The position numbers were made by a program, and so were the translations under genes. Of a DNA stretch of 11,171 nucleotides, positions 9,982 to 11,171 are shown one piece after another; the stretch's first letter is position 1, and the number at the start of each line of letters is the position of its first letter. The DNA lies in assembly GCA_049599895.1 (NCBI GenBank), contig JBMYPC010000103.1, positions 1 through 11,171 of the forward strand. Reading direction: 5' to 3'. Source of the stretch: Bacteriovoracaceae bacterium (GTDB lineage Bacteria > Bdellovibrionota > Bacteriovoracia > Bacteriovoracales > Bacteriovoracaceae). The notes under the pieces are model-generated. The model was not told the origin of the DNA and did no database searches. It was given only the letters and a program-made list of their open reading frames with translations.

Positions 9982-10011
9982 TTGACGGATCATCAACAAA
10001 AAATTTAGTAT
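9982..10011 (+). promoter_or_regulatory. Putative sigma70 promoter for the tRNA locus
   Basis: TTGACG (9982-9987), 18-nt spacer, TAGTAT (10006-10011), about 25 nt upstream of the first tRNA 5' end at 10037. Confidence 0.55.
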
Positions 10012-10033: not shown

Positions 10034-10049
10034 TAAGCGGGTGTAGCTC
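10034..10049 (+). repeat. Duplicated 5' fragment of tRNA-Gly (3 nt of flank plus tRNA nt 1-13)
   Basis: TAAGCGGGTGTAGCTC at 10034-10049 is identical to 10147-10162. Confidence 0.95.
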
Positions 10050-10146
10050 CCGGTCTGCAGCAAAAGTGTCCAGAGGACAGTTTTGATGCACGAGCGGACA
10101 GACAGATCTCGTTAAGAGATCTGGTAAAACACCAAGTTTCGAATTT
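10050..10146 (+). mobile_element. Putative miniature hairpin element, copy A (97 bp), between 16-bp direct repeats of the tRNA 5' end
   Basis: Begins CCGG. The 50-nt core 10050-10099 folds as an imperfect hairpin and is 38/50 identical to the reverse complement of 10276-10325. A second palindrome, CAGATCTC-GTTAA-GAGATCTG, lies at 10103-10123. Mobility is inferred. Confidence 0.7.
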
Positions 10147-10149
10147 TAA

Positions 10150-10225
10150 GCGGGTGTAGCTCAGTTGATAGAGTGGTTGCTTGCCATGCAACAGGTCGTG
10201 GGTTTGAGTCCCATCACCCGCTCCA
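10150..10225 (+). tRNA. tRNA-Gly (anticodon GCC)
   Basis: 76-nt cloverleaf: acceptor GCGGGTG/CACCCGC, D-stem GCTC/GAGT, anticodon stem GTTGC/GCAAC with loop TTGCCAT (GCC at 10183-10185), T-stem GTGGG/CCCAT, discriminator T73 and encoded CCA. G1-C72, C2-G71 and U73 are bacterial Gly identity elements. Confidence 0.96.
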
Positions 10226-10325
10226 CTATTCCAAGTCTTTTAGTTTTCAAAGTAAGTGCTTATGGCCTGCAACGAGTCCGCTTATGCATCAATGCTTGCC
10301 ACTGGCAACCATTGCTGCAAACCGG
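10226..10325 (-). mobile_element. Putative miniature hairpin element, copy B (100 bp), between 44-bp direct repeats of the tRNA 3' half
   Basis: On the minus strand it begins CCGG at 10325 and reads CCGGTTTGCAGCAATGGTTGCCAGTGGCAAGCATTGATGCATAAGCGGAC, the same hairpin as copy A. Mobility is inferred. Confidence 0.7.
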
Positions 10326-10369
10326 TGCCATGCAACAGGTCGTGGGTTTGAGTCCCATCACCCGCTCCA
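10326..10369 (+). repeat. Duplicated 3' fragment of tRNA-Gly (anticodon loop to CCA), possibly also an att core
   Basis: The 44 nt TGCCATGCAACAGGTCGTGGGTTTGAGTCCCATCACCCGCTCCA are identical to 10182-10225. Confidence 0.97.
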
Positions 10370-10402
10370 AAAAATTCACTAACATTCGATAAACCAAAAT
10401 AA

Positions 10403-10440
10403 TCACCAATGATTTTAAACATTTGTAATCATTAGGGTGA
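10403..10440. repeat. Imperfect inverted repeat downstream of the tRNA 3' fragment (possible terminator or att-associated structure)
   Basis: TCACC-AATGATT (10403-10414) pairs with AATCATT-AG-GGTGA (10427-10440). AT-rich, with no clean poly-T tail. Confidence 0.45.
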
Positions 10441-10493
10441 CTTATCTTAGAACTTTTAAACATTTCACAGAATTTCAGCTTATTTCAAAATTT

Positions 10494-10521
10494 GGTTACT
10501 TTTTGGTTACCCATAGGTTAC
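10494..10521 (+). repeat. Three GGTTAC direct repeats at 11-bp period; putative tyrosine-integrase arm-type sites
   Basis: GGTTAC at 10494-10499, 10505-10510 and 10516-10521. Confidence 0.7.
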
Positions 10522-10774
10522 CTCGTAGCATACCTATTTTCTGAGCTACAAACCGTAGCACTTAATCACTCTAAACGACTTAAATTAAAAAACAAATTTG
10601 CGGCAAGTGAGCTTGCCAAAAATTTTTACTTTAAAACAAGCGCTGCCTTGCCATTTGGAAGGCACACCCATTTTTCATTCATTCAAAATTGTAAAGCAAT
10701 AGATCTAGAGAGCTATTTGGAAAGAGCAATTAAAGATATTGATATTAACTTTTTGATTCAAAGGAGAATGCAAA

Positions 10775-11171
10775 ATGCAGCAGACCATTGAAGGAAAATG
10801 CGACAAAAAAAGCACTACTGATGCAGCAGTGATTTTAAAGAAAATGCGCGACTTAAAAGGACTTTCTCGCAAACAAGCTGGAATTATTTTTAACGTCACA
10901 TTTAAGACTATTGAAAAGCTTGAAAATGGACGTGGCAAAATTGATGAGCAAAGACTTGTCTCATTTGCAACAGGCTACGGTTTCACACTTGATGACCTTA
11001 TGAAAATTAAGAATGGGCAATACGACACGGACTTATCCTTAAAAAGTCGTATCAAAAAAGAGAAAGACCCACTTAGAAGGGACAGGAGGTTTTGCAAACC
11101 AAATATAACAAAAGAGTGCAAAGCTTTAAGGCAACTTCGAGAGAAAAGAAATATATCTCAATACAAACTAA
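10775..11171 (+). CDS. XRE-family helix-turn-helix protein with at least two HTH domains; truncated by the window end and absent from the ORF track
   Basis: AAGGAG at 10761-10766 and ATG at 10775. The open frame reads MQQTIEGKCDKKSTTDAAVILKKMRDLKGLSRKQAGIIFNVTFKTIEKLENGRGKIDEQRLVSFATGYGFTLDDL...KECKALRQLREKRNISQYKL. The first XRE domain is complete and the second begins at LRQLREKRNISQ. Confidence 0.88.
   Translation, partial: MQQTIEGKCDKKSTTDAAVILKKMRDLKGLSRKQAGIIFNVTFKTIEKLENGRGKIDEQRLVSFATGYGFTLDDLMKIKNGQYDTDLSLKSRIKKEKDPLRRDRRFCKPNITKECKALRQLREKRNISQYKL

Follow-up and report, generated by a model that had tools for sequence, protein, structure and literature searches.

A dispersed hairpin repeat with a strand-asymmetric fold and a preference for stable-RNA genes in a Bacteriovoracaceae bacterium

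Introduction

The described systems closest to the hairpin reported here are the REP, BIME and REPIN repeats with the group 2 TnpA-REP (RAYT) proteins, and our hairpin is, like them, a short imperfect palindrome with many intergenic copies (PMC8266576, PMC3333891, PMC3116915). It also shares with REP/REPIN sequences the conserved stem mismatches, the single stable strand, and the occurrence in inverted doublets, tandems and nested arrangements. The E. coli TnpA-REP is strand-specific and requires the conserved stem mismatches, cleavage by HUH enzymes yields a 5'-phosphotyrosine together with a free 3'-OH, and the way in which REP-like repeats spread is still open (PMC8266576), while a rolling-circle-like amplification model has been proposed for BIMEs (PMC3333891). 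The GTAG repeats often have G·T pairs (PMC3733652), and the CGTC repeats, considered together with TIRYT and the subclass 2.1 Y1 enzymes, are like our hairpin without a known transposase (PMC3733652, PMC6006769). The ends of IS200/IS605 elements resemble our hairpin in being strand-specific imperfect hairpins with a cut beside the foot (PMC3333891, PMC6006769), and MITEs are likewise small, non-coding, folded and flanked by direct repeats (PMC3184786).

The hairpin was studied in a window of 11,171 nt, that is, the whole stretch of DNA analysed from a Bacteriovoracaceae assembly, in which two copies, A and B, lie in opposite orientation around a tRNA gene. Other systems bear on this locus as well. 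Integron attC sites have RYYYAAC and GTTRRRY boxes at their ends and, as our hairpin would, work as folded single-stranded DNA with conserved unpaired bases. Islands that integrate in tRNA genes, either tyrosine integrase islands or CIMEs, restore the target tRNA and displace a fragment of it, and in the case of the hairpin the target gene is also restored and a fragment displaced. IS200/IS605 elements insert beside a fixed tetra- or pentanucleotide, and the Y1 enzymes of this type are not known to make a target duplication.

We found that the hairpin is a dispersed, inserting repeat with a strand-asymmetric fold, a preference for stable-RNA genes and one usually exact end. It is a small DNA repeat of predatory, Bdellovibrio-like bacteria, a real variant of the palindromic mobile repeats known in bacteria, distinguished by unusual signatures of insertion. 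The variant is apparently undescribed: a literature search that had subscription papers outside its reach returned no description of the family, and the supplementary cluster tables of bioRxiv 10.64898/2026.10.21.760802 might contain it. The more unusual part of the family is its long target duplications at tRNA genes, which were absent from the original prediction made for this DNA.

Structure and Covariation of the Hairpin

Core A (10050..10099, + strand) and core B (10276..10325, − strand, read from 10325 to 10276) can be aligned gap-free, and the sites at which they differ are precisely the 12 that the original prediction had listed, with five compensated pairs (6/43, 15/33, 16/32, 19/29 and 20/28), one change in the loop, one in the bulge, and the mismatches G4·G45, G11·A37 and G17·G31 common to both cores; all of this could be reproduced. 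One correction concerns positions 10 and 38, which form an A-T pair in the two cores; of 26 members of the family, 21 have a purine·A mismatch there. As single-stranded DNA, the folding energies are −18.1 kcal/mol for core A and −19.3 kcal/mol for core B (z-scores −8.0 and −7.5, with 0 of 200 shuffles folding equally well), while the reverse strands fold at −10.4 and −11.3, about 8 kcal/mol worse than the top strands as DNA. The weak similarity that had been claimed for the distal halves of A and B is not homology, since the end of "B" as first delimited (10226–10249) recurs on another contig, C178, and the tail of A is a module of other copies; on C178 these last 24 nt lie ahead of a chromosomal-looking gene.

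The covariation first seen between two copies persisted in larger alignments. Among 26 distinct gap-free copies, 13 of the 16 inner positions are Watson-Crick in 25–26 copies and 5 of the 6 outer positions in all 26. The mismatches are kept as well, G17·G31 by 24 copies, G11·A37 by 23 and, less often, the outer G·G by 19. In a second alignment of 79 distinct rows including relatives, which are related rows fitted to a structure model and therefore lean towards structure, 97.2% of the cells pair and double changes occur in 14 of 18 pairs. The real value is reached by 0 of 500 shuffles and slid partners give 35–45%, although these controls overstate the significance because the copies are related. 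It is the structure, not the sequence, that is conserved, as the prediction had it, with Watson-Crick swaps being nearly exclusive and the G·G and G·A mismatches kept; a protein presumably recognises this hairpin structure.

The comparison with Rfam, which had been proposed as a check of novelty, gave no Rfam 15 family over A or B at E values up to 1, and at 15 other loci only tRNAs passed the gathering score, the mir-232 model overlapping one hairpin with 21.9 bits versus 67.

Two Insertions at the tRNA-Gly(GCC) Gene

A and B flank a tRNA-Gly(GCC) gene and each adjoins a duplicated piece of it, a context that the original prediction did not contain, and the best reading is that they are two independent insertions into this gene. 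The intact tRNA-Gly(GCC), the target of both, lies at 10150..10225 on the + strand (ARAGORN; Rfam RF00005, 64.5 bits) and is the sole GCC glycine tRNA that ARAGORN finds in the genome. Upstream, at 9982..10011 (+), there is a weak sigma-70-like promoter match with 9 of 12 consensus bases, which is probably the native tRNA promoter; the region has 3 promoter-like sites versus 2.0 expected, and this one alone is not significant. The tRNA itself carries A for the usual G19 and T for C56, a matched change of the elbow pair which is also found in 3 of 30 other glycine tRNAs compared (L009, L014 and L020).

Insertion A occupies 10050–10146 in full and lies between identical 16-nt copies of its target, made of 3 leader bases plus nt 1–13 of tRNA-Gly: the upstream copy, or displaced 5' fragment, at 10034..10049 (+), and the downstream copy at 10147..10162 (+), which restores the 5' end of the tRNA. 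The first C of core A adjoins the displaced copy, after tRNA nt 13 at the junction of D stem and D loop. The tail of A (10100..10146, +) has a second hairpin by folding at 10103–10123 that is also found in other copies; its first 32 nt past the stem are 90.6% identical to the copy on C57, and the tail module has 9 occurrences in the genome.

In the case of B, the insertion point is in the anticodon loop, after tRNA nt 32 and before nt 33, with the element on the antisense strand; the first C of core B again adjoins the displaced copy. Its tail of 26 nt (10250..10275, −) is unique in the assembly, matching itself alone. The first copy of B's duplication (10182..10249, +) contains tRNA nt 33–76 (44 nt) plus 24 nt of 3' flank, and the second is a displaced 44-nt fragment of the tRNA 3' end at 10326..10369 (+), so that 10182–10225 and 10326–10369 are identical over 44 nt. 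The last 6 tRNA bases and the following 24 nt (10220–10249) recur at C178:2572–2601, where this 30-nt repeat sits between toxin-antitoxin-like ORFs and the chromosomal-looking gene (annotation by eye). From this repeat beside toxin-antitoxin-like ORFs we infer a later island in the displaced tRNA fragment, whose left end probably occupies 10370..11171 (no strand assigned), separate from the hairpin element. B's duplication was probably 68 nt long before the island split it, and the simplest order of events at the locus would be an insertion of B (76 nt) accompanied by a 68-nt duplication, followed by integration of the island in the displaced copy. Selfish DNA can thus sit inside essential tRNA genes without breaking them, and the spare tRNA fragments made by the hairpin serve islands as attachment sites, probably so at 10369/10370.

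The probable island would have an HTH-type gene at its left end, running from 10775 past the window end with weak matches to HTH regulators, and the toxin-antitoxin-like ORFs at its right end on C178. Short GGTTAC-type repeats at about 10490–10525 resemble integrase arm sites, and the inverted repeat at 10602–10617, which is short and GC-rich, has a T-rich tail on either strand and is terminator-like in both directions. A 174-nt contig of run X2 that joins 10325 back to 10182 was not counted as a circle or as an island-free allele, because 174 is 144 + 30, as expected of a cycle in the assembly graph. Contigs of run X1 span the junctions without differences, but this run may be the source of the window DNA and is not independent of it.

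A restored tRNA with a displaced fragment is also the classic signature of an island, and one could see A and B as eroded mini-islands, left by tyrosine recombinases at tRNA attachment sites, each with a replacement piece of tRNA. Two observations agree with this idea, the 7 tyrosine-recombinase matches of the genome and the real island that probably begins at 10370. The hairpin, however, is found at only 1 of these 7 integrase loci, there at the tmRNA gene, and a single hairpin family is found at many unrelated sites (tRNAs on both strands, metK and other repeats), always joined at its foot, while the target sites have no common core sequence. Unlike tRNA islands and CIMEs, moreover, the hairpin elements are about 65–200 nt long, have no integrase and use unrelated sites on both strands, including non-tRNA sites, and the mini-island origin is the least probable of the readings weighed here. 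We keep to two hairpin insertions followed by a probable island.

Copies in the Genome and in Relatives

That A and B belong to a family is confirmed by an iterated profile (nhmmer), which gave 83 matches in the genome, 57 of them full length, versus 0 in the reversed genome, and by further copies in relatives. A covariance model also gave 83 matches, 6 of which are the opposite strand of a listed copy, and the later counts use 88 copies, the 83 plus five added from other scans. What could have spoken against a new family did not appear: no named family was matched, more copies were found and the covariation was not lost. A hand-written structural descriptor was dropped, with 24 matches versus 25 in the reversed genome.

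The copies are single, in inverted doublets, in tandem, nested, or within a second repeat module; the inverted doublets (on C16, C33, C79, C148 and C163) and the tandem (on C45) are a minority, and evenly spaced runs of four copies are found in the relative G225. Only 6 of 88 copy midpoints fall inside ORFs of at least 110 aa, the neighbours are mostly housekeeping or unrelated genes (by eye), and the tails of the copies are mosaics. The second dispersed module, with 53 matches of its 12-nt motif (for example C31:25030–25082 and C35:4314–4366), is a frequent hairpin target, and its copy on C7 has a 13-nt flanking duplication. At C156:6511–6723 a divergent hairpin copy is followed by further small hairpins, partly repeated at the contig end.

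Within the phylum, to which the covariance-model searches were confined, model R1 had matches in 8 of 60 family genomes, and model R2 in 19 of 149 family genomes and in 8 of 149 phylum genomes, the latter in four families. The presence is patchy, with 6 of 11 genomes positive within one genus. An exact degenerate pattern found 5 loci in the genome collection (Bacteriovoracaceae, Bacteriovoracia, Bdellovibrionales and Oligoflexia); exact-pattern scans of metagenome and viral contigs and blastn against plasmids and phages gave no match.

More directly, empty sites could be compared with occupied ones. In G254, the terminal repeat of a Y1 gene is interrupted by an insert of 93 nt flanked by a 21-nt duplication, and the orthologous site of G015 is empty. 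At the 3' end of metK in one genus, hairpin and duplicated gene end are present together in 4 of 13 genomes; a single end is found in 8, one of which carries a different insert, and 1 is unreadable. In the four metK loci (L294, L295, L297 and L299), the displaced 51-nt end still encodes a stretch of 16 residues with hardly any change. Three of the strains agree completely in the in-frame end, and the displaced ends differ mostly silently, with 3–7 synonymous versus 0–2 non-synonymous codons per pair. From these identical in-frame ends and silently diverged displaced ends, we conclude that the insert has moved between strains carrying its own copy of the metK end. Homologous recombination is enough for such a transfer, and repeated enzymatic insertion does not follow from it. 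Gene ends are in this way shuttled between strains by hairpin insertions, and the readable junctions together with matched empty sites in near-complete relatives make the insertion chemistry directly testable.

Targets, Junctions and Duplications

The hairpin has a strong preference for stable-RNA genes. Of the 88 copies, 20 have a tRNA or tmRNA gene no more than 150 nt away; when copies were placed at random between genes 2000 times, there were 1.7 such copies on average and at most 8. Of the 31 tRNA/tmRNA genes, 16 are hit. In relatives, hairpins are likewise at tRNA and tmRNA genes and, by eye, at those of 5S and RNase P RNA. Many copies stand directly behind the CCA end of the tRNA and others inside the D loop, the anticodon loop or the T arm, on either strand.

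Duplications of at least 11 nt flank 15 of 37 copies in relatives and 2 of 200 random sites, while in the genome itself they flank 11 of 58 copies, two of these re-counting tandem units and three (C8, C15 and C163) not abutting the foot; the other 47 are without a detectable duplication. Junctions were tabulated in 39 rows (8 from own copies, picked for having a duplication, and 31 from relatives), of which 27 have duplications of 11–77 nt, one row being misplaced by a mismatch. Among these 27, C is the first base of the element in 20 and the target resumes with a purine in 25, a bias with p of about 0.001 among rows that are not independent. Where there is a duplication, the hairpin foot is usually its exact end and the tail end is variable. 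Taken together, these features make it very probable that the hairpin is a mobile element with an exact foot and long variable duplications.

These junctions also set the hairpin apart from its closest known counterparts. Unlike REP sequences, it has a longer stem, the stable-RNA-gene preference and long variable target duplications, and it is without a GTAG-type tag, a CT cleavage motif at its junctions or a flanking tnpA-REP gene; in the test for such tags, the foot of 57 copies carried GTAG in 2, GTGG in 4, GGAG in 0, CGTC in 3 and CnGA in 7. The hairpin family is thus REP/REPIN-like in its working and not a member, since the tag and the cognate gene were tested for and not found. CGTC stands ahead of the foot in only 3 of 57 copies, unlike in the CGTC repeats. 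IS200/IS605 elements have a transposase enclosed by paired ends and a target tetranucleotide; the hairpin has neither, and it differs further in its long duplications and in showing no lagging-strand bias. No conserved tetranucleotide, such as known Y1 systems use, was found at the foot of 57 copies, the targets have no motif beyond the following purine, and 44 copies on contigs of clear skew divide 26 to 18 between the replication strands (p 0.29). Unlike MITEs, it has no terminal inverted repeats round the whole insert, an unfixed duplication length and one ragged end. The comparison with attC sites, asked for at the outset, gave their boxes in 0 of 57 hairpin copies and no cassette arrays. 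As for an integron integrase, catalytic-domain stretches from five of the seven recombinase matches were scanned, and none reached the TIGR02249 cut-off, which fragments of this kind could not reach.

One exact end, one variable end and a variable duplication are the pattern of target-primed reverse transcription, and the hairpin shows all of these, its duplications being also long. A SINE-like mechanism, in which a nicked target primes the copying of an RNA that ends at the hairpin foot, would have a candidate enzyme in the one reverse transcriptase gene of the genome (C155:264–1817, L003, 517 aa). This protein, however, matches best the defence-type Drt4, Drt5 and Drt3a models, below their cut-offs, and lies in a probable island at tRNA-Ser(GGA). 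No PF00078 match was found in 3 of 5 near-complete hairpin-positive genomes, two of these three having 11 and 13 hairpin matches, and the template would be the less stable strand, all of which leaves this mechanism with a very small chance in our estimate. We keep to an element that works as DNA, for the reasons that follow.

Action as DNA or as RNA

The top strand is the more stable one in 52 of 55 copies as DNA and in 49 of 55 as RNA, so that a host-selected structured RNA, such as a processing signal of the tRNA precursor, a terminator or a small RNA, spread by local duplication, has to be weighed too. Many copies stand in sense immediately after the tRNA CCA end, and A, which is downstream of the promoter-like site, would be co-transcribed with the tRNA, a weak argument for such a role. 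Against it, B and many other copies are antisense to their tRNA, and between co-directional genes there is no sense bias (8 sense, 10 antisense). The G·T intermediates are also rare, with 16 single-side G·T cells versus 253 double-change cells in the sum of the per-pair table; the patchy presence given above (19/149 family genomes, 6/11 in one genus) and the interruption of HNH genes by hairpin copies do not suit a host function either, and we regard a host RNA as quite improbable. Rather, because of the rare G·T changes, the insertions into tRNA genes on both strands and the missing sense bias, the element probably acts at the DNA level.

Search for a Cognate Enzyme

The single Y1 match of the genome, on C53, is subclass-2.1-like by its motifs NHYH and YVYQNP, by comparison with PMC6006769, and scores 63.6 bits against NF047646, with a cut-off of 80. 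Its gene (C53:3411–4107, L001) is flanked by its own 21-nt palindrome. The palindrome makes up a repeat family distinct from the hairpin; it was matched 24 times, on 11 contigs, for the most part in inverted doublets 130–240 nt apart and sometimes in tandem. This terminal palindrome resembles the inner stem of the hairpin, 4 of 2000 shuffled palindromes scoring as high in a post hoc comparison, and the likeness is a lead, no more.

The hairpin was found flanking none of the Y1 genes in overlapping sets of 62, 27 and 24 loci (model scans), and among 29 further Y1 loci there was one clear match, the insertion of G254 into the gene's terminal repeat that is missing from the ortholog. Y1 genes are present in 12 of 13 hairpin-positive relatives tested. 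The original prediction had asked whether the element correlates with a nuclease or transposase family, and the presence of Y1 does not discriminate: within the family, the genes are in 7 of 8 positive genomes and in 31 of the 52 negative ones (Fisher p 0.24). Among 43 Y1 proteins placed in a tree, there was no clade that was both confined to the hairpin-positive genomes and covering them. A REPtron, that is, a tnpA-REP gene flanked by the hairpin, was not found in the assembly, which is in 266 contigs and could lack the gene.

Other candidates were rejected. On C86, two hairpins have a single-copy HNH gene beside them; this gene is present in 30 of 60 family genomes, and 0 of 29 homologous loci have the hairpin. 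A multi-copy HNH family has hairpin matches at 4 of 29 loci, one of them weak, and no such family is found in G015 or in this genome; these genes look like targets, not movers. The family (L209–L238) consists of proteins of about 270 aa with a C-terminal HNH domain, with 30, 21 and 10 matches in G077, G066 and G082, and its copies in G066 and G082 have an AT-rich motif in common ahead of the gene, a sign that the gene may be mobile in its own right. GIY-YIG and DUF559 matches had no hairpin flanks, including 3 of the 12 loci of one set, and an all-against-all comparison of the neighbouring ORFs gave no recurrent mobile gene besides the multi-copy HNH family.

That no partner gene was found in any family tested favours the view that there is no dedicated enzyme and that the insertions come from host replication or repair. 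In this view a nascent strand, stalled in the folded template of a tRNA gene, switches to the donor at the hairpin foot with the help of 1–3 nt of microhomology and then returns, either upstream or through homologous recombination; conserved genes would be favoured as anchors for recombination between strains. The foot is preceded by A in 33 of 51 copies and by CA in 16 of 51, which fits the CCA ends, the metK ends imply that inter-strain recombination moved the insert, and the CGTC repeats are likewise without a dedicated transposase (PMC3733652). Polymerase stalling alone, however, needs no fixed G·G and G·A mismatches amid swapping pairs, and the last duplicated base is unbiased in the 27 junction rows (A 8, G 7, C 6, T 6). 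We consider template switching rather unlikely for these reasons, and prefer an element moved by a protein.

Proposed Mechanism

The hairpin would be a non-autonomous single-stranded DNA element of REP-like type whose active part is the imperfect hairpin of about 50 nt, built of 5-bp helices split by the conserved G·G and G·A mismatches and stable mainly on one strand. A trans-acting protein, most likely a nuclease of HUH/Y1 type, would bind the top-strand hairpin and cut it at the 5' foot, and the cut end would be joined to a 3'-OH made in a target that is structured and single-stranded, as a rule with a purine following; this polarity is that of HUH strand transfer (PMC8266576). For the second end there would be no fixed cut site, and it would be closed by copying or recombination, much as in the rolling-circle-like model of BIME amplification (PMC3333891), bringing in a variable donor tail and duplicating 11–77 nt of the target. 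This duplication may rebuild the interrupted tRNA or gene end, with the result that the insertion survives, and surviving insertions could amplify in tandem and pass between strains via homologous recombination. To this whole explanation, with its one-ended join and its trans-acting protein, we give about an even chance. The case for HUH/Y1-type chemistry taken separately we regard as evenly balanced, and it is disfavoured by the lack of a cognate enzyme, of a Y1 gene that discriminates positive genomes, of a foot tetranucleotide and of a replication-strand bias.

If no Y1 enzyme acts on the hairpin, a new nuclease or a host pathway would be indicated. A more tentative and somewhat doubtful reading is that of an undescribed class of prokaryotic mini-elements moving one-endedly by an enzyme outside the known transposase families, with one end exact at a mismatch-rich DNA hairpin, the other ragged, and tens of target bases duplicated. 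Such elements would aim at the folded single-stranded DNA of stable-RNA genes and ferry replacement gene ends, along with neighbouring sequence, from strain to strain.

Elsewhere in the window, at 548–2613 (−), there are two tandem genes of similar layout with a pilin-like N-terminus by eye, and their C-termini resemble an intramolecular chaperone domain.
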